In this document: positions 5,176 to 24,605 of the stretch, piece by piece
How positions within the stretch are numbered: the stretch's first letter is position 1
How the letters are laid out: each line of letters starts with the position of its first letter
Assembly (NCBI GenBank): GCA_044226825.1
Contig: JBGAGH010000003.1
Span: 133,976-197,975 of the forward strand
DNA from: Cyclobacteriaceae bacterium
GTDB taxonomy: Bacteria > Bacteroidota > Bacteroidia > Cytophagales > Cyclobacteriaceae
Direction of reading: 5' to 3'
DNA: 64,000 bases
Position numbers and translations under genes: made by a program
The notes under the pieces: generated by a model
Seen by the model: only the letters and a program-made list of their open reading frames with translations
Database searches by the model: none
Told to the model about the DNA's origin: nothing

Positions 5176-5240
5176 AACGCGATGACCCAGACTGGTTATT
5201 GGGTTCTTGTTTCGTTGATCGTTCTTCCTTTAGACATTAC

Positions 5241-5268: not shown

Positions 5269-5319
5269 TGCGAAAACTAAACCCCAATGGGATTCATTGC
5301 CTGCGCTAGACTAATAAGC

Positions 5320-5417
5320 TAGTGGTTAGTTCGTGGTGGATGGTGGATGGTCGTGCTCCGTTCCAAACGCTCAGCATCTGAGTATTGGGGATTTGGTATT
5401 GGATATTGGGTATTCCA
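5320..5417. repeat. Degenerate ~7-mer tandem repeats (TGGTGGA-like, then TTGGRTA-like)
   Basis: tagtggt tagttcg tggtgga tggtgga tggtcgt ... tttggta ttggata ttgggta. Confidence 0.65.
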
Positions 5418-5490: not shown

Positions 5491-5538
5491 CCTAGGCCCC
5501 ACACAATTGCGGGACCTGCAGATGCGCCTCAGTTTCTT
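5491..5538. repeat. 48-bp direct repeat, copy 2 (contains hairpin 5494-5517)
   Basis: Identical to 5128-5175; both copies are preceded by TTCAAAAAC. Confidence 0.95.
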
Positions 5539-5684: not shown

Positions 5685-7325
5685 ATGAAAAGAAGAGATT
5701 TTGTGCAGCTAGCCGGGCTTGGGCTGGGCGGGTTGGCCCTCCCCCTGTCTGCGTTAGGAAATCCGGTACCGGTCGAAGCGCTCCTTGAGTCCCCCCTCGA
5801 CCGTTCCCAGAAAAAGCAACTTTCCGACGTCGCGCTGAACACCGCTAGGTCGATGGGTGCCACGTATGCGGACGTCCGAATCGGCCGTTACCTGAACCAG
5901 TTTATCAGCACCCGCGAGAATAAAGTACAGGGTATCACGAGCACGGAATCCTACGGCGTGGGTGTGCGCGTGATTGTGAACGGGACCTGGGGGTTTGCGT
6001 CCACCAACATGGTCACCACCGACGGCGTCAAGGCGTGCACACAATCGGCTGTGGCCATTGCCAAGGCGAACTCGAAGTTTCAAAAAGAACCCGTGAAGTT
6101 AGCTCCTACCCCGGGCGTAGGAGACGTAGTTTGGAATACTCCTATTCAGAAGAACCCGTTGGAGGTACCGGTATCTGAAAAGGCGGACTTGCTCCTCGCA
6201 GCAAACGCCGCCGCGCTGAAAAACGGTGCTGCCTTCGTGAGTTCGAACCTGTTTCAGGTAAATGAACAGAAATACTTCGCATCAACGGATGGTTCGTACA
6301 TCGACCAAGATGTACACCGCATTTGGCCGAACTTCCAGGTAACTGCAGTTGACCGCGCCGCCAACAAGTTCAAAACTCGATCAGAAATGGCTGCTCCGCG
6401 CGGTTCTGGCTACGAGTATCTGATCCCCAAGAAGGAAGACAAGGTAGAGGGACCAGGCGGCATGATCTTTTATAAGGACAGCTACGACATGATTGAAGAT
6501 GCCACCATCGCCGCCAAGCAAGCGAAAGAAATGCTTACCGCGAAATCGGTCGAGCCGGGCAAGTACGACATGGTCCTCGAACCTAACCACCTCGGTTTAA
6601 CGATACACGAGTCCGTGGGTCATCCCCTTGAGCTGGATCGAATCCTCGGCTACGAAGCCAACTACGCCGGCACGAGCTTCGCCACGCTCGACAAGTTGAA
6701 ATCTGGCAACTTCAATTATGGAAGTAAGCAAGTGACCATCTTCGCCGACAAAATTCAACCCGGTTCGCTCGGCGCCGTGGGCTACGATGACGAAGGTGTT
6801 AAAACCAAACAGTGGGACTTGATCAAAGACGGTGTTCTCGTGAACCTGCAGGCTGTTCGCGACCAGGTACATATCCTTGGGCAAAAGGAATCTCATGGTT
6901 GCTGTTATGCTCAGAGTTGGAACGATGTCCAGTTTCAACGGATGCCGAACGTATCGCTTGCACCCGGGAAAGAACCTTACAGTGTAAACCAAATGATTCG
7001 CGACGTGGATAAGGGCATCTTCATCGCGGGCCGTGGCTCCTATTCGATTGACCAACAGCGCTACAACTTCCAGTTTGGCGGGACCGTGTTCTTCGAAATC
7101 AAAGGCGGCCAAATTACCGGTATGTTGAACGACGTGGCGTACCAAGCCAATACACAAGAATTCTGGAACAGTTGTTCGAAGGTTTGTGACCAATCGGATT
7201 ATCGGATGTTCGGTTCATTCTTCGACGGCAAAGGTCAACCGTCGCAGGTGAGCGCCGTGTCGCATGGAAGCGCGACCGCACGATTCGATAATATTAACGT
7301 GATCAACACAGGGCGAACCATCTGA
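5685..7325 (+). CDS. tldD: TldD-family metalloprotease, paralogue 1 (Tat signal; no dedicated TldE partner)
   Basis: MKRRDFVQL Tat signal; IHESVGHPLELD (HExxGH); YDDEGV; QRMPN; FDGKGQP. Confidence 0.92.
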   Translation: MKRRDFVQLAGLGLGGLALPLSALGNPVPVEALLESPLDRSQKKQLSDVALNTARSMGATYADVRIGRYLNQFISTRENKVQGITSTESYGVGVRVIVNGTWGFASTNMVTTDGVKACTQSAVAIAKANSKFQKEPVKLAPTPGVGDVVWNTPIQKNPLEVPVSEKADLLLAANAAALKNGAAFVSSNLFQVNEQKYFASTDGSYIDQDVHRIWPNFQVTAVDRAANKFKTRSEMAAPRGSGYEYLIPKKEDKVEGPGGMIFYKDSYDMIEDATIAAKQAKEMLTAKSVEPGKYDMVLEPNHLGLTIHESVGHPLELDRILGYEANYAGTSFATLDKLKSGNFNYGSKQVTIFADKIQPGSLGAVGYDDEGVKTKQWDLIKDGVLVNLQAVRDQVHILGQKESHGCCYAQSWNDVQFQRMPNVSLAPGKEPYSVNQMIRDVDKGIFIAGRGSYSIDQQRYNFQFGGTVFFEIKGGQITGMLNDVAYQANTQEFWNSCSKVCDQSDYRMFGSFFDGKGQPSQVSAVSHGSATARFDNINVINTGRTI

Positions 7326-7348
7326 CCTCAGTCAACAAAAGTTGAATT

Positions 7349-8986
7349 ATGAAAAGAAGGGATTTTATACAGTTAGCGGGACTTGGTGCGGGAGCGATGA
7401 TGCTGCCCTTACCCGGATTCACAGCGGTCGACGAGGCTCGATTGCTTGACAATTTCATCGATGTATCTCAAAAGAAGAAACTGGCGGATATCGCGTTGAA
7501 CACGACACGTCAGCTGGGCGCCACCTACACAGACGTTCGCATCGGTCGATACTTGAACCAAGTGGTCTCGACCCGCGAAAAGAAAGTACAAGGCGTCGTG
7601 AACACCGAGTCTTTTGGGGTGGGCATCCGCGTGATTGCGAACGACACTTGGGGATTCGCAGCCAGCAACGACGTGACACCGGAAGGAATAAAGAAAACCG
7701 CCGAGCGCGCCGTAATCATCGCGAAAGCGAATTCCAAGTTTCAAAAACAACCGGTTAAGCTAGCGTCGACGCCTGCGTATGGTGAGGTCTCTTGGAAAAC
7801 ACCGATTGTGAAGAATGGATTCGAAGTACCGATCAAAGACAAGGTCGACTTGTTGCTGAACGCGAATTCAAAAGCGATGGAAAAGGGTGCTGCCTTCGTG
7901 AACAGTGCCATCCTGCTGGTGAACGAGCAAAAATACTTCGCGTCCTCCGAGGGATCCTACATCGACCAAGACGTACACAGGATTTACCCCACCTTTACTG
8001 TGACGGGCATCGACCGGCAGGCGAACTCCTTCAAGAATCGCACTTCCTTTTCTTCGCCAGTTGGGATGGGGTACGAATACCTCGACGGCCGCGCCGAAGA
8101 CAAAATCAAATCGCCAGGCGATATCATCCTCTACAACAAGTCGTACGACATTTTGGAGGACGCATCGATGGCCGGCGACCAAGTCAAGCAAATGATCGCA
8201 GCCAAGTCGGTGGAACCTGGCAAATACGATCTTGCTCTTGAGCCGTCGCACATGTGGCTCACCATCCACGAATCGGTAGGTCACCCGACCGAACTCGATC
8301 GCGTGTTGGGATATGAGGCCAACTACGCGGGCACCAGTTTTCTTACGCTCGACAAATGGCAAACCAAGAAGTTTCGATTTGGTAGCCCGGTCGTCAACTT
8401 CGTAGCAGACAAGACCCAACCGGGATCTCTCGGTGCGGTGGGCTACGACGACGAAGGTGTGAAGTGTAAGTCGTGGGATCTCATTAAAGACGGTGTGCTC
8501 GTGAACTACCAAGCCATCCGCGACCAAGTGAGCATCTTGGGAGAAAAAGAATCTCATGGCTGCTGCTATTCGCAGAGTTGGGCCGACGTTCAATTCCAAC
8601 GCATGGCTAACGTGTCGTTGCAACCCGGAAAGGAGTCTTTGACACCAGAACAGTTGATCTCTAGCATCGACCGAGGAATTTACATCGTGAAGGATGCGTC
8701 GTTCTCAATCGATCAACAACGTTACAACTTCCAGTTTGGTGGTGTGTTGTTTTTCGAAATCAAGGGTGGCAAGATCGTAGGTATGTTGAAAGACGTGGCG
8801 TACCAAGCAAACACGCAAGAGTTCTGGAACTCGTGCTCAGCCATTTGCGACGCGCGCGACTATCGATTGGGCGGCGCCTTCAACGACGGGAAAGGACAAC
8901 CGAGCCAATCGAATGCTGTATCGCATGGATCGGCCACAGCACGTTTCAACGGTGTCAACGTCATCAACACTGGACGTACGATTTAG
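7349..8986 (+). CDS. tldD: TldD-family metalloprotease, paralogue 2 (Tat signal)
   Basis: MKRRDFIQL; IHESVGHPTELD; YDDEGV; NDGKGQP. Confidence 0.92.
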   Translation: MKRRDFIQLAGLGAGAMMLPLPGFTAVDEARLLDNFIDVSQKKKLADIALNTTRQLGATYTDVRIGRYLNQVVSTREKKVQGVVNTESFGVGIRVIANDTWGFAASNDVTPEGIKKTAERAVIIAKANSKFQKQPVKLASTPAYGEVSWKTPIVKNGFEVPIKDKVDLLLNANSKAMEKGAAFVNSAILLVNEQKYFASSEGSYIDQDVHRIYPTFTVTGIDRQANSFKNRTSFSSPVGMGYEYLDGRAEDKIKSPGDIILYNKSYDILEDASMAGDQVKQMIAAKSVEPGKYDLALEPSHMWLTIHESVGHPTELDRVLGYEANYAGTSFLTLDKWQTKKFRFGSPVVNFVADKTQPGSLGAVGYDDEGVKCKSWDLIKDGVLVNYQAIRDQVSILGEKESHGCCYSQSWADVQFQRMANVSLQPGKESLTPEQLISSIDRGIYIVKDASFSIDQQRYNFQFGGVLFFEIKGGKIVGMLKDVAYQANTQEFWNSCSAICDARDYRLGGAFNDGKGQPSQSNAVSHGSATARFNGVNVINTGRTI

Positions 8987-9017
8987 TGATAGAATTCAAA
9001 ATCTTAATTACAGGGAT

Positions 9018-10364
9018 ATGTCATTGTTAAGTAAAGAAGAAGCAAAAAAGATCCTCGAAAAGGCGGTCGGATTTTCAAAGTCCGACGGAATTGCTGCCAA
9101 TCTCTCGGGGGCCGACCGGGGCAACATTCGCTACGCACGCAACAGCGTAACTACCTCGGGCGAAGACTCCAACATGAGCCTCGGGGTCACCTCGTTCTAT
9201 GGGAAGAAATCCGGGTCTGCGACCATCAACGAATTCGATGACGCGTCGATCGAAAAAGTAGTTCGTCGCGCCGAAGAGCTCGCTAAACTAGCGCCCGAAA
9301 ACCCAGAATTTGTAGAACCCCTACCTCAACAAACGTATGGGGCCGAAGCCAAAACCTTCTCGGAAGCGACGGCAAAGATCACACCCGACCTTCGTGCGCA
9401 GGCTGCTGCGGATAGTATCAACCCAGCTGCTGCCAAGAAGGTGACGGCCGCGGGCTATCTACAAGACAGCCGCGGATTCAACGCGATTATGAACAACAGA
9501 GGTTTGTACGCTTACAACAAGTCGACGAGCGTAGACTTTACCGTAACGATGCGGACCGATGACGGCACCGGTTCTGGGTGGGCCGCCCAGGATTTGAACG
9601 ACGTGAGCAAGTTAAATGCAGGTGCCACCTCGAAAGTTGCGATCGATAAAGCACTTCAATCGCGCGAAGCGAAAGCCATAGAACCAGGGAAGTACACAGT
9701 TATCTTGGAACCGGCCGCAGCAGCGGACTTGGTTCGTCTGATGCTGAATATGAATGCGCGTCAAGCGGACGAAGGTCGAAGCTTCCTCTCGAAAAAAGGC
9801 GGCGGCACTAAGTTGGGTGAAAAACTCGTCGATGAACGCGTCAACATTTATACAGACCCGTGGCACGAAGAAGTTCCCTCGTCGAACTGGGCTTTCGACG
9901 GCCTCGCGCGTCAAAAAATGGATTTGATCAAAGGGGGTGTGGTCTCCAACCTGATCTACGATCGTTATTGGGCCCAACAAAAAGGCGTCGCGCCGATTCC
10001 GTTCCCCGGAAACGCGATCATGGATGGAGGCAACGTGTCGGTGGAAGACATGATCAAGGACACGAAACGAGGCGTGCTCGTAACGCGCTTCTGGTATATC
10101 CGCCCTGTCGATCCTCAAACATTGCTATTCACAGGTTTGACCCGCGATGGAACTTTCTACATCGAAAATGGCAAGTTGAAACATCCAATTAAGAACTTTC
10201 GATTCAACGAAAGTCCGATTATCATGTTGAACAACTTGGAGGCGCTGGGCAAACAGGTGCGGGCGGTGACAAGCGAAGGCGGTCCTTTTGGAGGTCTGAA
10301 CCTATTGATTCCCTACATGAAGATTCGCGACTTCACCTTTACGAGCCTTTCCGACGCCGTTTAA
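9018..10364 (+). CDS. pmbA: TldE/PmbA-family subunit, paralogue 1 (no signal peptide)
   Basis: Likely start is ATG 9018 (MSLLSKEEAK), not the ORF-track 8913; PGKYTVILEP, GLTRDGTFYIENG, NFRFNES; no HExxH. Confidence 0.88.
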   Translation: MSLLSKEEAKKILEKAVGFSKSDGIAANLSGADRGNIRYARNSVTTSGEDSNMSLGVTSFYGKKSGSATINEFDDASIEKVVRRAEELAKLAPENPEFVEPLPQQTYGAEAKTFSEATAKITPDLRAQAAADSINPAAAKKVTAAGYLQDSRGFNAIMNNRGLYAYNKSTSVDFTVTMRTDDGTGSGWAAQDLNDVSKLNAGATSKVAIDKALQSREAKAIEPGKYTVILEPAAAADLVRLMLNMNARQADEGRSFLSKKGGGTKLGEKLVDERVNIYTDPWHEEVPSSNWAFDGLARQKMDLIKGGVVSNLIYDRYWAQQKGVAPIPFPGNAIMDGGNVSVEDMIKDTKRGVLVTRFWYIRPVDPQTLLFTGLTRDGTFYIENGKLKHPIKNFRFNESPIIMLNNLEALGKQVRAVTSEGGPFGGLNLLIPYMKIRDFTFTSLSDAV

Positions 10365-10390
10365 CACATTTTGTCGACTCGATTATTGAC

Positions 10391-10422
10391 AGGACTGCCT
10401 CGCAACGGGCAGTCCTTTTTTT
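10391..10422 (+). terminator. Intrinsic terminator closing module 1 (D1-D2-E1)
   Basis: AGGACTGCC...GGCAGTCCT stem followed by a run of T. Confidence 0.85.
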
Positions 10423-10550
10423 CTTTGCGATGGCCCAATTTTTCATGGCCTTAGCAAATCCCGCAAGCGTGAGGAAGGTGAAATGCGCACTTTGTCCAGT
10501 TTCGGACAAGCCGCTGCTTGACCCGCGAACGAGAAAATGTTAATTAGCCC

Positions 10551-10569
10551 AAGTAACATTTTGTTACTT
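10551..10569. promoter_or_regulatory. Perfect 8-3-8 inverted repeat, candidate operator upstream of tldD3
   Basis: AAGTAACA-TTT-TGTTACTT, 57 nt before the ATG at 10627 in an AT-rich intergenic region. Confidence 0.5.
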
Positions 10570-10626
10570 TTTACTACTGAATGAGTAGAGAATGAATCGC
10601 AAACAACTCACGACTCCAAACAAAAT

Positions 10627-12261
10627 ATGAAACGACGAGATTTTATTTACCTAGCTGGTATGGGTGCAGCGGGAGCCGCTGTCTTACCGGGCATGGCGAA
10701 CGGTCGACCCATCACGGTGGAAGAGGCCCTGACGCCGGTAGACACTGCTTTGAAAAAGCGCATGGCCGATGTGGCACTCAACGCCGCGCGGTCGAAAGGT
10801 GCTTCCTACGCGGATGTGCGCATAGGCCGATACTTAAACCAATTTGTGATCACCCGCGAAGACAAGGTTCAGAATATTGCGAACACTGAATCATACGGAA
10901 TGGGAATTCGTGTGGTGGCGAATGGTGGCTGGGGCTTCGCCGCGGTCGACAAACTAGATAACGACAGCATCGCGCGAGCGGCTGAGCTGGCAGTCTCCAT
11001 CGCGAAAGAAAATTCTCGATTGCTTACCGAGAAAGTTCAACTTGCCCCGTTAACGGGACACGGTGAGGTGAGTTGGAAGACGCCTATTGAGAAAAACGCG
11101 TTCGAAGTTCCGATCAAAGATAAAGTTGACCTGTTGTTGAACGTCAACAACACGGCCATGAAGGCTGGAGCCAACTACATCACCTCACTCCTGTTCCTTA
11201 TCAACGAACAGAAGTACTTTGCGAGCACCGACGGGTCGTATATCGATCAAGACGTGCACCGCATTTGGCCCGCATTTTTTGCGACCTCGATCGATCCTTC
11301 TTCGGGTAAATTTGAAACAAGAAATTCACTCAGCGCTCCCATGGGTATGGGATATGAGTACCTCGACGTACGTCCGCAGGACAAAATCAACAGTGTGACG
11401 ACACTTTACAAAGGTCGCTACGACATGTTGGAAGACGCGCGCGCGGGTGGCGCCCAAGCCGTGGAGAAGTTGAAAGCCAAGTCGGTTGAACCTGGCAAGT
11501 ACGATCTCGTGCTCGACCCGTCGCACTTGTGGCTCACGATCCACGAGTCTGTTGGACACCCGACCGAACTCGACCGCGTGCTGGGTTATGAAGCCAACTT
11601 TGCCGGAACTTCGTTTTTGACCCTAGACAAGTGGCAATCGAAGAAGTTCAACTTCGGTAGCAAGATTGTGAATTTCGCCGCCGACAAAACACAAGTCGGC
11701 TCACTCGGTGCCGTCGGCTACGACGACGAAGGGGTGAAATGCGGAAAGTGGGATCTGATCAAAGACGGAATCTTGGTCAACTACCAAGTGATCCGCGATC
11801 AAGCGCACATTTTAGGTTTAAAGGAATCGCAAGGATGCTGCTACGCCGACAATTGGAGCAGCGTACAATTCCAGCGCATGCCCAATGTCTCGCTTCAACC
11901 GGGTAAAGAAAAGAAATCGGTCGACGATATCATCAAGGGCGTCGAGAAGGGCATCTACATCATTGGCGATGGATCGTTTTCGATCGACCAACAGCGATAC
12001 AATTTCCAGTTTGGTGGTCAACTCTTCTACGAGATCAAGAATGGAAAGATCGCGGGTATGTTGAAAGATGTCGCGTACCAGGCAAACAGTCAGGAGTTTT
12101 GGAATTCGTGCACTGCGATTGCGGACGAGAATGACTACCGCTTAGGTGGCGCATTCGGTGATGGCAAGGGTCAACCGCCGCAAAGCAACTCAGTATCGCA
12201 TGGTTCATCGACCGCGCGTTTCAATAATGTTAATGTTATCAATACCGCACGTCAAATCTGA
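10627..12261 (+). CDS. tldD: TldD-family metalloprotease, paralogue 3 (Tat signal)
   Basis: MKRRDFIYL; IHESVGHPTELD; GDGKGQP. Confidence 0.92.
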   Translation: MKRRDFIYLAGMGAAGAAVLPGMANGRPITVEEALTPVDTALKKRMADVALNAARSKGASYADVRIGRYLNQFVITREDKVQNIANTESYGMGIRVVANGGWGFAAVDKLDNDSIARAAELAVSIAKENSRLLTEKVQLAPLTGHGEVSWKTPIEKNAFEVPIKDKVDLLLNVNNTAMKAGANYITSLLFLINEQKYFASTDGSYIDQDVHRIWPAFFATSIDPSSGKFETRNSLSAPMGMGYEYLDVRPQDKINSVTTLYKGRYDMLEDARAGGAQAVEKLKAKSVEPGKYDLVLDPSHLWLTIHESVGHPTELDRVLGYEANFAGTSFLTLDKWQSKKFNFGSKIVNFAADKTQVGSLGAVGYDDEGVKCGKWDLIKDGILVNYQVIRDQAHILGLKESQGCCYADNWSSVQFQRMPNVSLQPGKEKKSVDDIIKGVEKGIYIIGDGSFSIDQQRYNFQFGGQLFYEIKNGKIAGMLKDVAYQANSQEFWNSCTAIADENDYRLGGAFGDGKGQPPQSNSVSHGSSTARFNNVNVINTARQI

Positions 12262-12269
12262 TCATACCT

Positions 12270-13604
12270 ATGCCAATACTCTCAAAAGATCAAGCGCAGG
12301 CTTTATTAAAGAAAGTGCTGAGCTATTCGAAAGCCGATGAATGTGAAGTTAATCTCACAGGAACCGACGGGGGCAACGTGAGGTATGCTCGAAACGCGGT
12401 CAGCACGAGCGGCATCGTCAGCCAAAGCCAGCTCGTCGTGCAGTCCGCCTATGGAAAGAAACTCGGGACAGCTACCATCAACGAGTTCGACGACGCTTCT
12501 CTCGAGAAGGTCGTTCGACGCTCGGAAGAATTGGCGCAGTTGGCGCCCGAGAACCCAGAGTATGTCAGCGTGCTGGGACCTCAGCAATACTCAGAGTCTA
12601 AGAGCTTTGTTCAGTCTACGGCTGCCATTACGCCCAAGCAGCGTTCGACCCTCGTAGAAGAAAGTCTGAACATTGCGAAGTCGAGTAAGACGGTGGCTGC
12701 GGGTTTCTTGGAAGACAACAACGGTTATGCCGCCATGGCAAACTCGAAAGGATTATTTGCCTACAACACTTCGACGAACACCAACTTTTCTGTTACGGTT
12801 CGCACCGAGGATGGCAAGGGCTCGGGCTATGCCACGCGTGGTTACAACGACATCACCAAGTTGGATACCAAGAGCGCCACACAGATCGCCGTAGAGAAAG
12901 CGGTTCGATCTGCGACTGCGAAAGCGATTGAACCCGGCAAATACACCGTGATCTTGGAACCCGCCGCGGTAGCGGTGCTGCTCGAAAACATATTCTTCAA
13001 CATGGATGCCCGGCAGGCGGACGAAGGGCGGAGCTTCCTCAGCAAGCCCGGTGGTCAAACCAAGCTCGGAGAAAAGATGGTGGACGAACGCGTCAACATT
13101 TATTCCGACCCGTTGCATCCAGAACTTCCCACGAGCCCGTGGGCCGGCGATGGTCGCCCACAGGAGAAAGTATCGTGGATCGAGAAAGGCGTCATCAAAA
13201 ACCTTACTTGGGGCCGCTATTGGGCCGAGAAGAAAGGTGTGAAAGCCATTCCCACACCCGACGCCGCCATCATGGAAGGTGGCACGAAGTCGCTCGATGA
13301 ACTAATACGCGGCACGAAAAAAGGTGTCCTCGTCACACGCCTCTGGTACATCCGCAGTGTGGACCCACAGACCCTCTTGCTCACAGGGTTGACACGCGAT
13401 GGAACGTTCTACATTGAAAATGGGGAGATCAAGTACCCGGTGAAGAATTTCCGCTTCAACGAGAGCCCCATCATCATGCTGAATAACTTGGAGGAATTGG
13501 GTCGTCAAGAAAGAACGGTGAGTGTCGAGTCAAACCTCAACTACCTTTTGCCACCGCTCAAGGTTCGCGACTTCACGTTCTCAAGCCTTTCCGACGCGGT
13601 TTAA
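12270..13604 (+). CDS. pmbA: TldE/PmbA-family subunit, paralogue 2
   Basis: PGKYTVILEP, GLTRDGTFYIENG, C-terminal FSSLSDAV; no signal peptide. Confidence 0.88.
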   Translation: MPILSKDQAQALLKKVLSYSKADECEVNLTGTDGGNVRYARNAVSTSGIVSQSQLVVQSAYGKKLGTATINEFDDASLEKVVRRSEELAQLAPENPEYVSVLGPQQYSESKSFVQSTAAITPKQRSTLVEESLNIAKSSKTVAAGFLEDNNGYAAMANSKGLFAYNTSTNTNFSVTVRTEDGKGSGYATRGYNDITKLDTKSATQIAVEKAVRSATAKAIEPGKYTVILEPAAVAVLLENIFFNMDARQADEGRSFLSKPGGQTKLGEKMVDERVNIYSDPLHPELPTSPWAGDGRPQEKVSWIEKGVIKNLTWGRYWAEKKGVKAIPTPDAAIMEGGTKSLDELIRGTKKGVLVTRLWYIRSVDPQTLLLTGLTRDGTFYIENGEIKYPVKNFRFNESPIIMLNNLEELGRQERTVSVESNLNYLLPPLKVRDFTFSSLSDAV

Positions 13605-13612
13605 CACCACTC

Positions 13613-13653
13613 ATGTCCGGGGGAATCGATTTCGAATCTCCCGGACATTTTTT
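13613..13653 (+). terminator. Intrinsic terminator closing module 2 (D3-E2)
   Basis: ATGTCCGGG...CCCGGACAT stem followed by TTTTT. Confidence 0.75.
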
Positions 13654-13712
13654 ATTGAAGGGACCACCGCGAACCCGTACCTTACGTTCCGGAAAAATCT
13701 AAACCTTACCCC

Positions 13713-15353
13713 ATGAACCGAAGGGATTTCGTTCGCTTGTCTGGACTTGGTGCCGGCGCCCTGATGCTGTCGCTTCCATCGCACGCCAAAGTCGTAGACG
13801 CCTCTCAACTGCTGGCTGCCGGCATGGATGTCGCCACGAAAAAACGCCTAGCCGATGTGGCTTTGAATACAGCCAAAGCGAATGGTGCGACCTATGCAGA
13901 TGCCCGCATCGCCCGCATCTTGAATCAGTTTATTATCACGCGGGAGAAGCAAGTCCAAAACGTAATCAACACGGAATCATTCGGCGTTGGCATTCGTGTG
14001 ATTGCCAACGGTACTTGGGGTTTTGCATCGACAAACAAAGTGGACGCCGATTCGATCGCAGCGGCCACACGCGAAGCCATCGCGATTGCCAAGGCCAACT
14101 CCAAATTTCAAAAAGAACCAGTGGTGCTGGCACCCGTGCCCGCGTACGGGGAAGTAAGTTGGAAGACACCCATCACCAAAAATGCGTTCACGGTTCCGTT
14201 GAAAGATAAAAGCGACTTGTTGCTGCAAGCGAACGCCAAGGCGCTTGAGAAGGGTGCCTCGTTCATCAACAACACGTTGTTTCTCGTGAACGAACAGAAA
14301 TACTTCGCGTCGACCGACGGCTCTTACATCGATCAAGACTTTCACCGCACGTGGCCTTATTTCACCGTCACGGTGGTAGATAAAGCCGGCGGGGGGTTCA
14401 AAACCCGCGACTCCTTCAGTGCGCCGGTGGGCATGGGCTACGAATACCTCGACGGTCTTGCAAAAACCAAGATAGAAGGACCGGGTGGGGTGATCCTTTA
14501 CAACAATTCGTACGACATGATCGAGGACGCTGCCCTCGCGCCAGAGCAAGCGAAGCAGATACTTTCGGCGAAATCGGTGGAGCCAGGTAAATACGACTTG
14601 GTCCTAGAACCATCTCACACCTGGCTGACCATCCACGAATCCGTAGGTCACCCTTTGGAGTTGGATCGTGTATTGGGCTACGAGGCTAACTTGGCCGGAA
14701 CAAGCTTCGCTTCCTTGGAAAAACTCCGATCGGGTAAGTTCAACTATGGAAGCAAAGTCGTGAACTTCTTCGCGGACAAGAATCAACCTTACTCGCTCGC
14801 GGCTGTAGGTTATGACGACGAAGGGGTAAAATCAAAACGCTGGGACTTGGTAAAAGATGGTGTGCTCGTCAACTTCCAGGCAATCCGCGACCAGGTCGGT
14901 CTGTTGAATGAAAAAGAATCCCATGGCTGTTCCTACGCTCAAAGTTGGAACAACGTTCAGTTCCAGAGAATGGCCAACGTATCGCTTGCACCGGGCAAAG
15001 AACCACTGACGCCGGCTCAAATGATTGCAGGCGTTGATCGAGGTATCTATATCGTAAAAGACAGCTCCTACTCGATCGATCAGCAACGGTACAATTTTCA
15101 ATTTAGTGGTGTGCTGTTCTTTGAGATCAAAGGAGGCAAGATCGTCGGCATGTTGAAAGACGTAGCCTACCAAGCAAACACGCAAGAATTCTGGAACTCC
15201 TGCGTGCAAGTCTGCGACGAACGCGACTATCGATTGAACGGCTCTTACTTCGACGGCAAAGGCCAACCAGTGCAGTCGAATTCCGTGTCGCATGGATCGG
15301 CCACCGCACGTTTCAACGGTATCAACGTGATCAACACCGCGAGAACCCTCTAA
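13713..15353 (+). CDS. tldD: TldD-family metalloprotease, paralogue 4 (Tat signal)
   Basis: MNRRDFVRL; IHESVGHPLELD; FDGKGQP. Confidence 0.92.
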   Translation: MNRRDFVRLSGLGAGALMLSLPSHAKVVDASQLLAAGMDVATKKRLADVALNTAKANGATYADARIARILNQFIITREKQVQNVINTESFGVGIRVIANGTWGFASTNKVDADSIAAATREAIAIAKANSKFQKEPVVLAPVPAYGEVSWKTPITKNAFTVPLKDKSDLLLQANAKALEKGASFINNTLFLVNEQKYFASTDGSYIDQDFHRTWPYFTVTVVDKAGGGFKTRDSFSAPVGMGYEYLDGLAKTKIEGPGGVILYNNSYDMIEDAALAPEQAKQILSAKSVEPGKYDLVLEPSHTWLTIHESVGHPLELDRVLGYEANLAGTSFASLEKLRSGKFNYGSKVVNFFADKNQPYSLAAVGYDDEGVKSKRWDLVKDGVLVNFQAIRDQVGLLNEKESHGCSYAQSWNNVQFQRMANVSLAPGKEPLTPAQMIAGVDRGIYIVKDSSYSIDQQRYNFQFSGVLFFEIKGGKIVGMLKDVAYQANTQEFWNSCVQVCDERDYRLNGSYFDGKGQPVQSNSVSHGSATARFNGINVINTARTL

Positions 15354-15389
15354 ATCACTAACACGAGAACCTTAGAATCCACCCATACC

Positions 15390-16727
15390 ATGTTATCGAA
15401 AGACGAAGCCCGTAGCATTCTTCAAAAGACCCTTGGTTTCAGTAAAGCCAACGGTTGTGAAGCCACGCTCACCGAACAAGTAGTCGGAAATATCCGATAT
15501 GCTCGCAACACGGTGACCACCGCGGGAAAGAGTACAGACACGTCTATTAATATTACCTCCTATTTTGGAAAACGAGCAGGTGTTGCGACTGTGAACGAGT
15601 TCGACGATTCATCGCTCGAAAGAGGCGTTCGTGCATCTGAGGAGTTGGCGAAACTGGCGCCGGAGAATCCCGAGTTCATGGAGCCACTAGGGCCCCAGAC
15701 TTATGCCGAATCGAAGGCTTACTTTGAATCTACCGCCAACATTTCGGCGGAATTCAGAGCACAGGCTGCCTACGACAGCATCACGCCCGCTTCGAAGGTA
15801 GGTGTAACTGCCGCTGGCTACCTTGAAGACGGAGCCGTGGTGACGGCCATGATGAACAGCAAAGGGCTCTATGCCTACAATGCTGCCACGGGTGCGAACT
15901 TTACCGTTACGATGCGCAGCAACGATGGTACGGGCTCGGGTTGGGTACAACGTGACCACAACGACATCTCGAAGATCAATATCGCCGACGCATCGAAGAT
16001 CGCGATAGATAAGGCACTTCAATCGCGTCAGGCGAAAGCCATTGAACCCGGTAAGTACACCGTGATCTTGGAATCGCAAGCGGCTGGAGACTTAATCCAA
16101 ACCATGTTCTTTAGCATGGACGCCCGGAGTGCCGATGAAGGACGAAGCTTTCTATCAAAAAAAGGCGGCGGCACCAAGCTCGGGGAAAAAATTGTGGATG
16201 AACGCGTCAATATTTACACCGATCCGTTCCATCCCGACGCTCCGTCGGCCACGTGGTCGCAAGATGGTGTTCCATTAAAGAAAATGGACGTGATTAAGAA
16301 AGGTGTCGTGTCCAATTTATTTTATGATCGATACTGGGCTTCACAAAAAAATGTTGCTCCGGTACCGGCGCCTGCAAACCTAATCATGGAAGGTGGCAAT
16401 GCGTCGTTGGAGGACATGATCAAGGATACCAAACGCGGTGTGCTGGTGACGAGGCTTTGGTACATTCGTTCGGTCGACCCTCAAACACAGCTATACACGG
16501 GGTTAACCCGGGATGGTGTATTCTATATCGAAAACGGAAAGATCAAACATCCCGTGAAAAATTTCCGGTTCAATGAAAGTCCCGTAATCATGTTGAATAA
16601 TCTGGAGACACTTGGAAAGCAAAACCGTTTGGGAAGTGGCTTTGGTCAATTCGTCGGCGGAACATTCCTCGTTCCAAACATGAAAGTGCGCGATTTTACG
16701 TTCACAAGCTTATCCGACGCCGTATAA
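15390..16727 (+). CDS. pmbA: TldE/PmbA-family subunit, paralogue 3
   Basis: PGKYTVILES, GLTRDGVFYIENG, C-terminal FTSLSDAV; no signal peptide. Confidence 0.88.
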   Translation: MLSKDEARSILQKTLGFSKANGCEATLTEQVVGNIRYARNTVTTAGKSTDTSINITSYFGKRAGVATVNEFDDSSLERGVRASEELAKLAPENPEFMEPLGPQTYAESKAYFESTANISAEFRAQAAYDSITPASKVGVTAAGYLEDGAVVTAMMNSKGLYAYNAATGANFTVTMRSNDGTGSGWVQRDHNDISKINIADASKIAIDKALQSRQAKAIEPGKYTVILESQAAGDLIQTMFFSMDARSADEGRSFLSKKGGGTKLGEKIVDERVNIYTDPFHPDAPSATWSQDGVPLKKMDVIKKGVVSNLFYDRYWASQKNVAPVPAPANLIMEGGNASLEDMIKDTKRGVLVTRLWYIRSVDPQTQLYTGLTRDGVFYIENGKIKHPVKNFRFNESPVIMLNNLETLGKQNRLGSGFGQFVGGTFLVPNMKVRDFTFTSLSDAV

Positions 16728-16879: not shown

Positions 16880-17512
16880 TTGAACACGGTCCGTTTTAAT
16901 AGCCCTTTCTTCTTCACCCGCCTCCAATATGAATCCGGAGATTGGGATGTGGACCAGCGCATGCCCTCGAACGTACTGAACTCTCTCATCGAGTACACGA
17001 CCCTGCCCGTGGATACCCAAGAGAATATCGTGGCACTCAGCAGCGACGCGATCTTTCGTTGCCCCTTTTGTTACCTGAGTGGGCATAAGCTTGTCGAATT
17101 CACGTCGACCGAACGGGAGAATTTGGAAAAATATATCAAGCAGGGAGGGTTTCTCTTCGTCGACGACTGCAACCACGACATCGATGGCCTCTTCGCCAAG
17201 TCGTTTGAGTCTCAAATGGAGAAAATCTTCGGGACAGGCTCACTCAAGAAAATCCCGAAGAACCACGAGCTTTACTCGGCATTTTTTCATTTCGACGGAC
17301 CGCCCGCGACCTCGCAAGAATTGAACGGCTGGGGCGACGACATCGTCCACGACTATCTGAAAGCCATCGAAATCAACGGCAAGATCGGAGTACTGTACAG
17401 CAACAAGGACTACGGGTGCGAATGGGACTACGACTTTCGAAACAAACGTTTTTATAAAATTGATAATACGCGGTTTAGTGTCAACATCGTGATGTACGCC
17501 CTAACCGCCTAG
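16880..17512 (+). CDS. DUF4159 domain protein
   Basis: TRLQYESGDWD, GGFLFVDDCNHD and KDYGCEW motifs; TTG start is the first possible start after an in-frame stop. Confidence 0.85.
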   Translation: MNTVRFNSPFFFTRLQYESGDWDVDQRMPSNVLNSLIEYTTLPVDTQENIVALSSDAIFRCPFCYLSGHKLVEFTSTERENLEKYIKQGGFLFVDDCNHDIDGLFAKSFESQMEKIFGTGSLKKIPKNHELYSAFFHFDGPPATSQELNGWGDDIVHDYLKAIEINGKIGVLYSNKDYGCEWDYDFRNKRFYKIDNTRFSVNIVMYALTA

Positions 17513-17522
17513 CGAAGATCAT

Positions 17523-18533
17523 ATGAATGCTCCACTTCAAGCGACCGAACAACAAGTCAACGAACTCATCCAAGCACTTCAAAATCTGAAGCGTGAGATC
17601 AGAAAAGTCATCGTCGGACAAGAAGATACGGTCGATCAACTTTTGATCACCTTTCTTGCGGGCGGCCACGCGCTGCTCGAAGGTGTACCGGGTCTGGCGA
17701 AAACGCTGATGATCAGAACTCTCTCAGAAGCTGTTCACCTAAAGTTTCGACGAATCCAGTTCACGCCAGACCTGATGCCTTCGGACATCATTGGAACGGA
17801 AATCTTGGAAGAAGACCACACGACGGGAAAGAGAATATTCAAGTTCAATAAAGGGCCTTTGTTCGCCAACATTATCCTAGCCGACGAAATCAACCGTACA
17901 TCACCGAAGACACAATCGGCATTGTTGGAAGCCATGCAAGAATTTGAAGTTACCTACGGCGGTGTCACCTACCCACTCGAACGTCCCTTCTTCATCCTGG
18001 CCACTCAAAACCCGATCGAACAAGCGGGAACCTTTCCCCTACCCGAGGCGCAACTCGATCGATTCCTATTATACATCAGGATTGGGTACCCGAGCGCCGA
18101 GGAGGAACGTTCCATCTTGGAAAATACGACGGGCAAACGTTCGGTCCAGATCGAAAAAGTAATCACGGGCCAACAGATCGTCGAAGCGCAAAAGCTAGTC
18201 CGCGAAGTACACATCAGTTCGGATCTCGTTCAGGTCGTCTCCGACACCGTTCGAGCCACACGCCCCGATCAAACGCCTGTTGGGAAAGTAAAGGAATGGG
18301 TTCGGTGGGGCGCAGGACCGCGGGCAGGTCAAGCCATGATCCTCACCGCTAAAGCACGCGCATTGCAAAACGGCAACTTGTCGGTAACGCGCGAAGACAT
18401 CGCAAAAGTAGCGTACCCAGTGTTGAGGCACCGTATCTTGATGAACTTCCGCGCCGAGGCCGAAGGCGTAAAGTCCGACGACATCACGAAGGCAATCCTC
18501 GAGCATACGCTCGCCTTGCATAAGACTGTTTAG
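17523..18533 (+). CDS. MoxR-family AAA+ ATPase
   Basis: LLEGVPGLAKT Walker A, RIQFTPDLMPSD, LADEINR Walker B, ATQNPIEQAGTFPLPEAQLDRF. Confidence 0.95.
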   Translation: MNAPLQATEQQVNELIQALQNLKREIRKVIVGQEDTVDQLLITFLAGGHALLEGVPGLAKTLMIRTLSEAVHLKFRRIQFTPDLMPSDIIGTEILEEDHTTGKRIFKFNKGPLFANIILADEINRTSPKTQSALLEAMQEFEVTYGGVTYPLERPFFILATQNPIEQAGTFPLPEAQLDRFLLYIRIGYPSAEEERSILENTTGKRSVQIEKVITGQQIVEAQKLVREVHISSDLVQVVSDTVRATRPDQTPVGKVKEWVRWGAGPRAGQAMILTAKARALQNGNLSVTREDIAKVAYPVLRHRILMNFRAEAEGVKSDDITKAILEHTLALHKTV

Positions 18534-18534: not shown

Positions 18535-19431
18535 ATGAAGCAAGAAATCAACGATCTGCTGAAGCCCGAGCTACTCAATACCGTGAATGGTCTTGAGCTA
18601 GTCGCGCGCATCGTCGTTGAGGGTTTCATGAGCGGCAGCAACCGAAGCCAGTCGATAGGCGTCGGCTATGAATTTAGCCAGTACCGGAGCTACGAACCCG
18701 GCGACGACCTCCGCTTGTTGGACTGGAAGATGTACGGTAGGTCTGAAAGATACTACATCAAGCAATCGGAAATCGAGACCAACATCACCGTTAAATTCAT
18801 CCTCGACGCCAGCAAGTCGATGGAGTATAAAGAAAAGAGCATCAGCAAACTTCAATATGCCAAGGTGATGGCCGCTGCGCTCGCGTACCTGGCGCGAAAG
18901 CAAAGTGATACATTCGGTTTATACGTGGTCAACGAACACGGGTTAAAGATGATTGAGCCCCGGTTCGAACAACAGCAATTCATGCGGTTTCTAAACGAAC
19001 TCATTGCTGCAAAAGGCGAAGGCGGCTGGGGAAAGGGAAAAGATATCGAAGCACTCCATCATCATGTTGGGAAAGAAGTCATCATTTTCTTTACCGACCT
19101 GTACGATCATGGAAATGATCTTCAGCAGTTTATAGCCAACCTCAAGACAAGTCGTAACGAAGTAATCGTATTTCAAATCATGGGCTACGATGAAATAAAC
19201 TTAGAAACCGAGGGTGTCTTTACATTCGAAGACTTGGAAACGGGCCAACGCATGAAAGTCGACACCGTTGCCCAACAGAAAGCCTATCAGTCAAAGGTCG
19301 ATGAGTGGATACAGCAGTCTAAGTCGTGGATGCTGGAAAAGCAGATCGACTACCAACTAGTGAAACTCAATCAACCGGTAGAATCGGTCATCGCTAAATT
19401 TTTGAATAGTCGTAAACGGCTCCTCCGGTGA
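18535..19431 (+). CDS. DUF58 domain (vWA-like) protein
   Basis: EFSQYRSYEPGDDLRLLDWK; LDASKSM MIDAS-like motif; follows MoxR. Confidence 0.92.
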   Translation: MKQEINDLLKPELLNTVNGLELVARIVVEGFMSGSNRSQSIGVGYEFSQYRSYEPGDDLRLLDWKMYGRSERYYIKQSEIETNITVKFILDASKSMEYKEKSISKLQYAKVMAAALAYLARKQSDTFGLYVVNEHGLKMIEPRFEQQQFMRFLNELIAAKGEGGWGKGKDIEALHHHVGKEVIIFFTDLYDHGNDLQQFIANLKTSRNEVIVFQIMGYDEINLETEGVFTFEDLETGQRMKVDTVAQQKAYQSKVDEWIQQSKSWMLEKQIDYQLVKLNQPVESVIAKFLNSRKRLLR

Positions 19432-20621
19432 CCTTTTTGAATCCCGCATATCTTTGGGCGCTTTCCGCACTCGCCATCCCAGTGGCGATTCACTTGTTGA
19501 GTCGCAAAGAGGGCCGCGTCATTCGTGTGGGCTCCTTGCGACATGTTGAGGAATCGAATACCAGTCAATTCAAATCCATTCGCCCCAATGAGATATTGAT
19601 TTTCATCCTTCGGGCACTCATGTTTATATGCATGGTGTTTTTCCTCGCCGGAGCGCAATGCACATCGTCCGACCCATCATCTTCTCGATGGCTTGTCGTG
19701 GAAACAGGTATCGACAAAGACCCGATTTACCGACCAACCATCGATAGTCTCGTCAAGAACGGTTTCGAACAACACTTTCTGGCGCCCGGGTTTCCGTTGG
19801 AAGCGCCTTCCGGCGTCGTTCCCAATTATCGCATGCTGGCACTCGACCTCGGCACTCTTGGGTTCGAAGTGGTCGTCATCTCGTGGTCGAAGGCCAATCG
19901 ATTCTTAGGAACGCGAATACCAATCCCTCCCAATGTGCGATGGATTACCGCCGACCACGCGCCGATCACGTATCCAGCCTATGCACGCCAGTTCGGCGAT
20001 AGCCTACTCACTCGAACAGCCACTTCGTCCGGAGCTGGTACAAACTATTCCTCTCAATTTGAATTTGGACCGGGCCAAGACACCTGGCGAGATTCCATTG
20101 CAGTCGACAAACCAATTTCACAGCGTGTTCACTTGTTTGCCGATGCAGACCATGAAGACCTGAAGCGAGTATTTGACGCTGCCCTTTCAGTGCTCAAAAA
20201 AGACTTTCACTTACCCGTGGTCGTGACAGACGATGCCGCCTCCGCGGATTGGGTTTTTTGGTTAAGCGACGCGCGTCCCAAGCTTCCCGCAACGGTTCAC
20301 GCAGCCCTGCTCGATGCCCAAGCGTCAGGTCCGATTTTCGAGCAGACAGGGCCCAATACGTGGGCAATCCGACAGCTCAAGGATCGAAGTGATGCAATTC
20401 GTCACAATCTCGTCTTAGAATTGTACCGACTGATGTATTCAGCGGAAAAAACCGATCCATCGGATGTGCGTTCACTACCCGAAGCTATGGCATTTTCGAA
20501 CGTGTCGTCAACGGACCAATCCAACCCGACGCCGACGCGCGATCTTGCCGCGCTATGGATCTCGATCCTTTTGGTGACCCTCAGTCTTGAACGTTGGCTT
20601 TCGTGGAAAAGGAATCAATGA
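19428..20621 (+). CDS. BatA N-terminal domain membrane protein
   Basis: MTFLNPAYLWAL...IPVAIHLL double-TM N-terminus; C-terminal TM ending LERWLS; GTGA overlap with DUF58. Confidence 0.85.
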   Translation: MTFLNPAYLWALSALAIPVAIHLLSRKEGRVIRVGSLRHVEESNTSQFKSIRPNEILIFILRALMFICMVFFLAGAQCTSSDPSSSRWLVVETGIDKDPIYRPTIDSLVKNGFEQHFLAPGFPLEAPSGVVPNYRMLALDLGTLGFEVVVISWSKANRFLGTRIPIPPNVRWITADHAPITYPAYARQFGDSLLTRTATSSGAGTNYSSQFEFGPGQDTWRDSIAVDKPISQRVHLFADADHEDLKRVFDAALSVLKKDFHLPVVVTDDAASADWVFWLSDARPKLPATVHAALLDAQASGPIFEQTGPNTWAIRQLKDRSDAIRHNLVLELYRLMYSAEKTDPSDVRSLPEAMAFSNVSSTDQSNPTPTRDLAALWISILLVTLSLERWLSWKRNQ

Positions 20622-22879: not shown

Positions 22880-24605
22880 ACCTTGGATCCTTTGGAACCC
22901 GGTGTTCCCCGCTTCGCTTGTCATTGTCGGCGCGTTCATCGGGCTAGTCGGCCTACTTTTTTTCGAGTACCGTCGAAAGATCAAGTACCGCGCAGGGCGG
23001 ATGCTGGCACAGTTCCTCTTCGTTTGCTCCATCACATTACTAATTCTACGTCCTTCTTGGCCAAGTGCCCAACCTCAGAAAGGTTTTTTGCTCCTGACAA
23101 ATGGCTACGATCCCGCGCAAGTATCCTCAATCCTTGGGGAGCACCCGGCCCTAGAACCGGTTTCGATGCCCGACGCGAAGCCCTACCCAGACGCGAGAGC
23201 ACTAAAGTCGTATCACGAACTTGCGTCGATGGGTGATCGGGTGGCGACCGTCGTGGGACATGGACTTCCTAGCTGGGCGTTGGGCTTGATTCAAAAACCT
23301 GACTACACGTTCGCTCCTTCGCCAACCAAAGGTATTTCACGATTAAATGTCGACAACAGGCGATTGGCCAATCGCTGGAACACCATCGAGGGTACGTACA
23401 CTGGAGATCAACCGGCGTGGATTCGGCTGCGCGGACCAGCGGGGATCGAAGACTCGATTCAAGTAACTCCGGGTGAGTCTCCATTTACCCTAAACTTTTT
23501 CTCCAAGTCCGCAGGCCATTTCATGTACGAAGTGACAACACCCGATGCCAACGAACCGCTTCCACTCTACATTGAACCCGAAGCACAACTGTCGGTGGTG
23601 ATCATCGTCGACTATCCGACCTTTGAAACACGGTATCTGAAAAACTTCTTGGCATCGAAAGGGCACCGCGTCACGATTCGCACCCGAGTCTCGAAAGAGA
23701 AATTCAAATTCGAATTCGACAACATTACCCCTCATGAATTCAAGCAGTTGAATGACCAACTGCTTTCGACAGCCGACATCTTGGTGATCGATGCACGCGC
23801 GTTTCAGTCACTGAACTTTGGCGAACAAAAATCAGTGCGCGCCAACATCGTCTCGGGTTTAGGTGTGGTGCTGCTCCCGGACCCGTCGATCAAGAAGGGA
23901 CCGGAACTACTGTCTTTTGCGCCCACAAACGACGTGGATACTGTATCGATCAAATTGCCACGTGCGAATGTGATTCGTCTACCCAGCGTGCCGCTCCGGC
24001 CCACCGCGCGGATTGAAACCATCGCCTCCTCCACCAAAGGAAGGATCATGACGGGCTACCAGATATCGGGGCTCGGAAAAATAGGGTTCACCTTACTAAA
24101 AGAGACCTATCAGCTCGGGTTACAATCCAAAGGCGACGACTACTCGCTGCTTTGGGTCCCACTCTTTGAAAAATGTGCGCGAACGAAAATCGATCCTTTC
24201 CAAATCAAGGTACTCACACCATTTCCCAGGTATACCGACGCGCCCATCGACATTGAAGTCTTATCGAATGGAAAAACACCGCGCGTTTCGATGGATAGTA
24301 TCGATGTCCCGGTATCCGAAGACCTCCGAATTGACGATGTTTTCGATGCTCGGATTTGGGTCGCCAAACCGGGATGGCACGAACTTAAGGCCGACTCCAC
24401 AACACAATGGTTGTATGTAGCGGCTCCCGAGACCTGGTCTACCGTAACTGCGGCGGAGAATATGAGGGTCACGTCGCTGCACGCTTCCGCCGAATGGCAC
24501 GAACGGTCGCCCGAACCGGTGCACAACCATGGGCTTCCCACCGTCATTCTCTTTCTGATTTTTGTGGGCTCTTCCGGGTTTTTGTGGCTGGCTCCGAAAC
24601 TTTAA
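22872..24605 (+). CDS. Membrane protein of the MoxR/DUF58 cluster, function unknown
   Basis: Overlaps the upstream stop; two N-terminal TMs and a C-terminal TM (LFLIFVGSSGFLWLAPKL). Confidence 0.8.
   Translation: MSEPWILWNPVFPASLVIVGAFIGLVGLLFFEYRRKIKYRAGRMLAQFLFVCSITLLILRPSWPSAQPQKGFLLLTNGYDPAQVSSILGEHPALEPVSMPDAKPYPDARALKSYHELASMGDRVATVVGHGLPSWALGLIQKPDYTFAPSPTKGISRLNVDNRRLANRWNTIEGTYTGDQPAWIRLRGPAGIEDSIQVTPGESPFTLNFFSKSAGHFMYEVTTPDANEPLPLYIEPEAQLSVVIIVDYPTFETRYLKNFLASKGHRVTIRTRVSKEKFKFEFDNITPHEFKQLNDQLLSTADILVIDARAFQSLNFGEQKSVRANIVSGLGVVLLPDPSIKKGPELLSFAPTNDVDTVSIKLPRANVIRLPSVPLRPTARIETIASSTKGRIMTGYQISGLGKIGFTLLKETYQLGLQSKGDDYSLLWVPLFEKCARTKIDPFQIKVLTPFPRYTDAPIDIEVLSNGKTPRVSMDSIDVPVSEDLRIDDVFDARIWVAKPGWHELKADSTTQWLYVAAPETWSTVTAAENMRVTSLHASAEWHERSPEPVHNHGLPTVILFLIFVGSSGFLWLAPKL

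Follow-up and report, generated by a model that had tools for sequence, protein, structure and literature searches.

Four twin-arginine-leader TldD genes and three leaderless TldE genes in a Cyclobacteriaceae bacterium: local expansion of a conserved pair predicted to be exported

TldD and TldE (PmbA) proteins occur in about 60% of bacterial genomes, and their housekeeping role is still unclear. To our knowledge, they are known only as a cytoplasmic enzyme. We present here an analysis of seven consecutive genes of this family, located in a 64,000-nucleotide stretch (the window) of DNA from a Cyclobacteriaceae bacterium (GenBank assembly GCA_044226825.1, contig JBGAGH010000003.1, positions 133,976 to 197,975 of the forward strand). 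Four TldD-type proteins (D1 to D4) carry a twin-arginine translocation (Tat)-type leader and a metallopeptidase motif, and three TldE-type proteins (E1 to E3) carry neither. The array is a local expansion of a conserved core pair, consisting of one leader-bearing D and one leaderless E, with the multi-paralogue state as the minor novelty. Folded D-E dimers may be exported to the periplasm by Tat, with E as a hitchhiker, a reading on which we are evenly balanced.

The seven open reading frames (ORFs) fill positions 5685 to 16727 of the window on the + strand, in the order D1-D2-E1, D3-E2, D4-E3. The features are as follows.

D1, 5685..7325, + strand: 546-aa (amino acid) Tat-leader TldD-type metallopeptidase; Pfam PmbA_TldD 1st, 2nd, and 3rd domains
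D2, 7349..8986, + strand: 545-aa Tat-leader TldD paralogue; 18.5 bits on TIGR01409
E1, 9018..10364 (probable start), + strand: 448-aa TldE/PmbA-type partner, leaderless and without HExxxH
Terminator-like hairpin, 10391..10416, + strand: 10-bp stem followed by a T run, 3′ of E1; from a consensus scan only
D3, 10627..12261, + strand: 544-aa Tat-leader TldD paralogue; 21.1 bits on TIGR01409
E2, 12270..13604, + strand: 444-aa leaderless TldE-type partner of D3, beginning 8 nucleotides (nt) past D3
D4, 13713..15353, + strand: 546-aa Tat-leader TldD paralogue; 21.5 bits on TIGR01409
E3, 15390..16727, + strand: 445-aa leaderless TldE-type partner of D4

All seven proteins belong to the TldD/PmbA superfamily (MEROPS M103), and each has the Pfam domains PF01523, PF19290, and PF19289 (PmbA_TldD_1st, 2nd, and 3rd) above the gathering scores. 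The D paralogues share 63 to 71% pairwise identity and the E paralogues 58 to 67%; D and E proteins are about 25 to 30% identical to each other over partial alignments. The motif HESVGHP is present in D1 to D4, and a search for HExxxH in E1 to E3 found none. Gaps between genes are 8 to 36 nt inside the three units and 262 and 108 nt between them, and the hairpin after E1 suggests that D1-D2-E1 is one transcription unit. The longest ORF of E1 opens at 8913, within D2; the start is most likely at 9018 (MSLLSKEE), because orthologues begin with M-x-I/L-L-S-K and have stop codons just upstream. The original prediction, made from the letters and ORF translations, had placed these genes and their order correctly to the base. 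It had also described an M(K/N)RRDF start and HESVGH in four D proteins and no signal in three E proteins, and both descriptions stood up. An assembly artefact, which it had thought unlikely, was rejected, given the divergence of the paralogues (58 to 71% identity) and the same array and flanks in two independent assemblies: a 179-kb JGI metagenome contig and the Logan assembly (L082) of SRR7543979. Contigs of several sludge and bioreactor metagenome runs also cover the array region. One run labelled as RNA-Seq gave even, low-depth coverage of genes and spacers alike, and DNA was possibly present in it.

The leader was assessed first on the window proteins themselves. D1 to D3 begin with MKRRDF and D4 with MNRRDF, followed by a Gly-rich, uncharged stretch. 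The start K/N-R-R-D-F-V/I is a twin-arginine motif of the S/T-R-R-x-F-L-K type. The isolated first 40 residues were scored against TIGR01409, the NCBIfam Tat signal model (cut-off, 16.7 bits), and gave 17.3 bits for D1, 18.5 bits for D2, 21.1 bits for D3, and 21.5 bits for D4. The N-termini of E1 to E3 alone gave no score. The D1 leader is annotated below.

D1 twin-arginine-type leader, 5685..5759 (end approximate), + strand: MKRRDFVQLAGLGLGGLALPLSALG; the A-L-G/N cleavage site (ALG/N, the slash marking the cut) is a guess

The asymmetry between D and E is conserved. Relatives were sought in one genome per species and turned up at more than 590 loci, throughout Bacteroidota; leaders and starts were counted in the best 80 of these. 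A leader with the Arg pair (RR leader) was found in 131/131 D proteins and a leaderless start in 109/109 E proteins, all of which open with M-x-I/L-L-S/T-K and have stop codons shortly upstream. The RRxF motif is present in all 135 Bacteroidota D proteins examined; the uncharged stretch behind it has a median length of 24 residues, a mean hydropathy of 1.24, and 18% Gly. It thus has the character of a Tat hydrophobic region (uncharged, moderately hydrophobic, and at least about 13 residues long). Cys, which a lipobox requires, occurs within the first 45 residues of just 2 of the 135. Leaderless relatives of ~480 aa align to D1 from about residue 45 only, so the leader region is an added N-terminal extension of ~45 residues. 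E1, on the other hand, is co-linear with the cytoplasmic PmbA of Escherichia coli from residue 5 on. Conservation across the loci makes the leader assignment convincing despite the marginal scores of single sequences.

E adjoins D downstream in 79 of the best 80 loci, and in the exceptional locus the sequence ends within 542 nt of D. Flavobacteriales have one D-E pair per locus and Cytophagales one to three; Chloroherpetonaceae also hold the architecture. This survey of paralogue number, which the original prediction had proposed for Cytophagales, gave D-D-E-D-E as the usual state in the clade of the window, whose nearest named relatives (Chryseolinea, Ohtaekwangia, and Chryseosolibacter) agree with a placement in that order. 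In Xanthocytophaga flavus (L061, 6354-12989), two D-E pairs are divergent (E-D on the minus strand and D-E on the plus strand) and not in tandem. An exhaustive search of 50%-identity representatives returned 887 clusters at E<=1e-30, and a Tat-like N-terminus was seen in roughly a fifth of the 104 full-length top representatives, the others being leaderless. When a distant representative that bears a leader served as the search seed, relatives in Gemmatimonadota were reached. They are 45 to 50% identical to D1, and 110 of 117 full-length sequences have the RR leader, HExxxH, and D-x-K-G-x-P (like the D-x-K-G-Q-P of the window). In two Gemmatimonadota loci that were inspected, a leaderless E lies directly downstream of D, and its C-terminus, ...FTSLSDA(V/I), matches that of the window E proteins. 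Unlike the window, these loci have a single pair and no adjoining genes for DUF4159 or the AAA+ ATPase MoxR. Annotations in this phylum read TldD/PmbA family protein, metallopeptidase TldD-related protein, or, for one relative at NCBI, twin-arginine translocation signal domain-containing protein. Since leader-bearing D and leaderless E occur together in Bacteroidota, Chloroherpetonaceae, and Gemmatimonadota, they form an old and widespread subfamily that extends beyond this genome. Separately, some distant relatives with a Tat-like RR leader have lost HExxxH (P0242, P0260, P0290, P0299, P0334, P0340, P0374, and P0382); leader-bearing and probably inactive TldD-like proteins thus exist in other lineages.

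The fold of D1 was modeled with AlphaFold2 (AF2) from a 150-sequence alignment that included Gemmatimonadota relatives. The model has a predicted local distance difference test (pLDDT) score of 89.1 and a predicted template modeling score (pTM) of 0.88; residues 1 to 22, which fall below pLDDT 50, and a few loops are uncertain. An earlier model from a 32-sequence alignment (pLDDT 66) was discarded, its catalytic domain being unusable. In Foldseek, the best PDB matches of the model are E. coli TldD chains (E=8.5e-39; template modeling [TM] score, 0.81; 20% identity), with TldE/PmbA structures ranking behind them. D1 is therefore predicted to have the TldD fold, with an N-terminal domain and a C-terminal beta-funnel with a central helix. 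At the level of equivalogs, the window proteins stand apart: the four D proteins score 52 to 76 bits on the TldD model NF008006 (cut-off, 513) and 108 to 131 bits on the archaeal TldD model NF040952 (cut-off, 635), and the three E proteins score 42 to 58 bits on the PmbA model NF008268 (cut-off, 438). They are a subfamily separate from the E. coli and archaeal equivalogs.

The active-site features of D1 are as follows.

HESVGH, His308 to His313, 6606..6623, + strand: metal-binding/catalytic motif, aligned with HEAVGH 262-267 of E. coli TldD
Asp514-Gly-Lys516 (in DGKGQP), 7224..7232, + strand: proposed third metal ligand, in the place of Cys454-Gly-Lys456 of E. coli TldD

His308, Glu309, and His313 are invariant over the 150 aligned relatives, and HESVGH has its counterpart in D2, D3, and D4. 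Also invariant in the 150 are Glu316 and Asp318, the counterparts of the structural residues Glu270 and Asp272 of E. coli TldD; in D1 to D4 the motif reads HESVGHPxELD, with Glu and Asp three and five residues past the second His. The original prediction had inferred peptidases that may differ in specificity; all catalytic residues are invariant among the four D proteins. In E. coli TldD, Cys454, within C-G-K, serves as the third metal ligand (PMC5810440). The window D proteins do not have this Cys; they have Asp, and DGKGQP is found in 135/135 Bacteroidota D proteins. Asp514 and Lys516 are invariant in the 150-sequence alignment. Leaderless relatives have CGKGxP where leader-bearing D proteins have DGKGQP, and among the 50%-identity representatives Asp accompanies a leader and Cys the lack of one (Fisher p=1.3e-5). 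An Asp variant at this position was noted for Gemmatimonas by Ghilarov et al. (PMC5810440). We infer that Asp514 replaces Cys as the third ligand; the proposal is conditional, because the phmmer alignment shows a one-residue register shift, and it relies on motif register, because the profile alignment to E. coli TldD ended before the Cys454 region. A switch from Cys to Asp would be in keeping with an oxidising compartment, in which thiolate ligands are avoided. Cys406 and Cys497, which might form a disulfide, are not conserved in Gemmatimonadota.

In E. coli, TldD needs TldE as its heterodimer partner for activity, and TldD itself binds Zn/Fe (PMC5810440). The window proteins resemble that complex (PDB 5NJ5) in the three-domain architecture, the fold, the structural Glu and Asp, the presence of HExxxH on D only, and the pairing with a catalytically dead paralogous partner. 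They differ in that the window D proteins are about 20% identical to E. coli TldD, carry the ~45-residue twin-arginine extension, and have Asp for Cys454, that up to four D and three E genes stand in tandem, and that the proteins are predicted to be periplasmic and not cytoplasmic. A second point of comparison is the hitchhiker route of the Tat system, established for hydrogenases and formate dehydrogenases (PMC10924467), in which a leader on one subunit serves a folded complex. E. coli HybO/HybC, FdnG/FdnH, and DmsA/DmsB have, like the window pairs, one leader-bearing subunit and an adjoining partner gene, and they load metal before export, as is proposed for the window pairs. The leader is likewise on one subunit here (131/131 D versus 0/109 E, and the same in the two Gemmatimonadota loci). 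Those complexes, however, are redox enzymes that carry complex cofactors and have chaperones of their own, whereas the window pairs would be simple metallopeptidase shells, free of redox cofactors, whose co-export is predicted.

From these comparisons we infer export, co-export, heterodimer formation, and a substrate class for the window proteins. D would be made with its twin-arginine leader and would fold and load metal (at His308, His313, and Asp514) in the cytoplasm. Its partner there would be the adjacently encoded E, leaderless and catalytically dead, and the two would form a hollow heterodimer as in E. coli. This dimer, of about 105 kDa, would then cross the inner membrane through the Tat translocase, E being the hitchhiker, and the periplasmic dimers would trim or degrade unfolded peptides able to thread into the shell. 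The hitchhiker reading is the best supported of those considered, because the asymmetry of leader-bearing D and leaderless E is conserved; further grounds are the obligate heterodimer of E. coli, the known hitchhiker route, and the tat genes of the phyla concerned, tatA/tatC having been reported in surveyed Bacteroidetes, Chlorobia, and Gemmatimonadetes genomes (PMC3827258).

Several observations weigh against export of the dimers. The Tat model scores barely exceed the cut-off and are positive but marginal for any single sequence. When full-length proteins were searched with TIGR01409, D4 alone surfaced, just under the cut-off, and the Pfam TAT_signal model (PF10518) stayed under its gathering score (best scores, 18.1 and 17.3 versus 22.7 bits). 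The window contains no TatA-like ORF, a weak test that used an E. coli TatA query and says nothing on the whole genome. Experimental or proteomic reports on the localisation of these D and E proteins were not found. Further difficulties, concerning the numbers of D and E, the cleavage site, and the neighboring genes, are taken up below with the explanations to which they lend weight.

The original prediction had proposed combinatorial pairing of D and E, and this is disfavoured. Co-variation was measured from distance matrices over 16 D-D-E-D-E loci, a small and non-independent sample. The correlation r is 0.85 for D2-E1, 0.86 for D3-E2, and 0.78 for D1-E1, against 0.71 to 0.75 for non-adjacent pairs; after removal of the shared signal, D2-E1 (+0.19) and D3-E2 (+0.24) have the sole positive residuals. 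This favours mostly cognate pairs of neighbors and, together with the constant adjacency of D and E, lends indirect support to a D-E complex. With four D and three E, the seven proteins cannot all pair strictly 1:1; two D proteins therefore share one E, or D1 acts without E or with another D.

The last of these options leads to the first rival, in which export is confined to D, whether monomeric, homodimeric, or in a D-D heterodimer such as D1-D2. E would then remain cytoplasmic, either as a factor for assembly or holding or in a separate cytoplasmic function. The excess of D over E, the lack of partner-specific co-variation for D1 (which also counts against dimer export as such), and the adjacency of D1 and D2 kept in the Chryseolinea clade all point this way, as does an active TldD homodimer reported from Sulfolobus and discussed in PMC5810440. 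Against this, E stands next to D in nearly every locus and across phyla, with very short gaps, and is highly conserved (the median identity of E1 between bacterial classes is 65.5%); in E. coli, moreover, activity is confined to the heterodimer, which is also more stable (PMC5810440). We consider export of D alone unlikely.

The second rival is a variant of dimer export, in which the RR leader is not cleaved and remains as a Tat-inserted N-terminal anchor. This would hold the D-E shells on the periplasmic side of the inner membrane, perhaps beside the BatA-type proteins encoded downstream. No conserved A-x-A cleavage site is evident in the D leaders, which weighs against a freely periplasmic dimer, and the residues past the hydrophobic core vary; D3 scores 19.6 bits on PF10399, a Rieske-type uncleaved Tat signal (cut-off, 24, not reached), and downstream genes encode membrane proteins. 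Candidate sites picked by eye in the four leaders are ALG/N, FTA/V (D2), ANG/R, and SHA/K. They place a small residue at −1 in all four and at −3 in three, D2 having Phe there, and the Gly-rich, only moderately hydrophobic stretch is more typical of cleaved Tat signals; both observations speak for cleavage. An anchor is, on this balance, improbable.

A third rival concerns chemistry and not location. The window proteins might be amidases or N-deacetylases acting on a nonribosomal or envelope substrate, like some TldD/E-like pairs of antibiotic biosynthesis, and not general peptidases. A 2022 review of TldD/TldE is said to record N-deacetylases in the family. Their scores far below the E. coli equivalog cut-offs and their different third metal ligand would suit such a shift. 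The peptide-clamping fold, HExxxH, Glu316, and Asp318 are nonetheless all retained, and no biosynthetic gene cluster surrounds the array within the window, so that we regard this as quite improbable. That the RR motif is no export signal at all and the seven proteins are cytoplasmic, as the marginal signal-model scores and the lack of localisation reports would allow, is very hard to believe in view of the motif and uncharged stretch kept in 135/135 D proteins of Bacteroidota and 110/117 Gemmatimonadota relatives despite 45 to 50% divergence, of the leader as an extension that leaderless homologues lack, and of the Tat label that NCBI gives to one relative.

The history of the paralogues was approached by identity clustering. 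D1 clusters with the single D of Flavobacteriales, at a median of 73% identity, higher than with its own paralogues; D1 is thus the ancestral copy, and E1 corresponds by orthology to the ancestral E. In the cluster of D2 there is nothing but second D proteins from DDE(DE) loci in the Chryseolinea/Ohtaekwangia clade; D2 was inserted between D1 and E1. D3 and E2 cluster with the second pair that other Cytophagales have. D4 and E3 group with none of these, their nearest groups being those of D2 (about 75%) and E1 (71 to 73%), and among 5.8 billion proteins only about 11 clusters match D4 at 83 to 93% identity, the next being at <=77%. By these groupings, D3-E2 is an older second pair and D4-E3 a later, lineage-restricted duplicate, most like D2 and E1. 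For each paralogue, identity between orthologues of different genera is 80 to 86%, whereas the paralogues differ by 30 to 37%; a separate constraint has therefore long maintained each copy. As a whole, the expansion to seven genes is a minor elaboration specific to the lineage.

Downstream of the array lies a cluster of six + strand genes.

DUF4159 protein, 16880..17512, + strand: 210 aa, no leader; PF13709, E=2e-52
MoxR-type AAA+ ATPase (AAA_3), 17523..18533, + strand: Pfam assignment; counterpart in 66 loci
DUF58 (vWA-like) protein, 18535..19431, + strand: Pfam assignment; counterpart in 61 loci
BatA N-terminal-domain membrane protein, 19428..20621, + strand: Pfam assignment; counterpart in 48 loci under the thresholds applied; hydrophobic segments at both termini
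Membrane protein of 761 aa, 20594..22879, + strand: no Pfam family; His/Asp/Glu-rich stretch; kept in 44 loci
Protein of 577 aa, 22872..24605, + strand: no Pfam family; hydrophobic N- and C-terminal segments; kept in 36 loci

Of the 74 loci that extend far enough, 68 have the DUF4159 gene directly after the last E (median gap, 128 nt), and the usual order after it is MoxR, DUF58, the BatA N-terminal domain, and two large family-less membrane proteins. Between Cytophagales and Flavobacteriales, the median identity is 79% for DUF4159 and 70.5% for MoxR. The sole PDB relative of DUF4159, 4i66, is uncharacterised, and full-text searches found no paper on DUF4159. The 761-aa ORF has a low-complexity His/Asp/Glu stretch at about 22080-22280 (+ strand), which reads ...GHQHDTENEHN...GHQHENEEDKND...RHDHDSEEE... 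and suggests metal binding.

MoxR, DUF58, and the BatA N-terminal domain occur in the same order in the Bat (MoxR-DUF58-vWA-TPR) operons, for example, that of Riemerella anatipestifer (PMC11834572). A classical Bat operon was considered as the identity of the cluster and rejected: a BatB-type vWA protein and a TPR protein are missing, and DUF4159 and two uncharacterised, family-less membrane proteins are present instead. The cluster looks like a second, distinct MoxR cluster. The Riemerella paper makes no mention of TldD/PmbA (PMC11834572). Within Bacteroidota, the synteny suggests a functional or regulatory link, and cooperation or co-regulation of the D-E pair with the DUF4159-MoxR-DUF58-BatA cluster is probable. 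The link is not intrinsic to the pair, because the two inspected Gemmatimonadota loci have no MoxR cluster, which counts against this part of the favoured reading. A broader proposal, a conserved Bacteroidota envelope module in which Tat-exported TldD/TldE shells act with the DUF4159-MoxR-DUF58-BatA membrane machine, is one that we put forward tentatively, as possible and somewhat doubtful. The original prediction had overlooked the phylum-wide core pair, the Asp third ligand, and this neighborhood.

The upstream genes fabH, efp, accB, and accC are common only to close relatives. The spacer between accC and D1 contains a perfect 48-nt direct repeat with a hairpin-forming core, at 5128-5175 and 5491-5538. 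Contigs of other runs end at or near the repeat copies (5157 and 5509), and one run joins 4361 to 5325, so that 963 nt are missing, including small ORFs at 4366-4668 and 4773-5132. These contig breaks and the skipped 963 nt indicate that the spacer varies between strains. Past the cluster, positions 24608-29786 on the minus strand encode a 993-aa protein with a CHU_C type IX secretion C-terminal domain, then an SPFH/Band 7 protein, and then a 192-aa protein with a sub-threshold NfeD match (16.6 versus a cut-off of 29.1 bits). The CHU_C gene is likewise the next gene in both other seven-gene assemblies.

The original prediction knew of no characterised periplasmic multi-paralogue TldDE system, and full-text searches, whose coverage did not include the 2022 family review, found no paper on Tat-type or periplasmic TldD/E. 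Databases label thousands of sequences as TldD/PmbA, at least one of them with Tat, and the genes are therefore known while their biology is undescribed. If the subfamily is exported, it would give the TldD/E family a second cellular compartment, and a metallopeptidase would join the short list of Tat hitchhiker cargos. The subfamily is kept at about 73% identity between Bacteroidota classes, always with a leaderless partner. The MoxR AAA+ cluster, itself uncharacterised, lies in such tight synteny with it that each offers a handle on the other, and the array of four D and three E genes provides matched paralogues with which partner choice and the divergence of specificity may be studied. Genetically tractable bacteria, presumably Flavobacterium johnsoniae among them, carry such genes, which opens the proposal to direct experiment. 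Should the envelope module exist, it may serve, for example, in periplasmic peptide turnover or in the maturation or quality control of envelope proteins. It would include the first metallopeptidase, and the first non-redox complex, proposed for the Tat hitchhiker route, and the seven-gene array would be a natural experiment in its subfunctionalisation.

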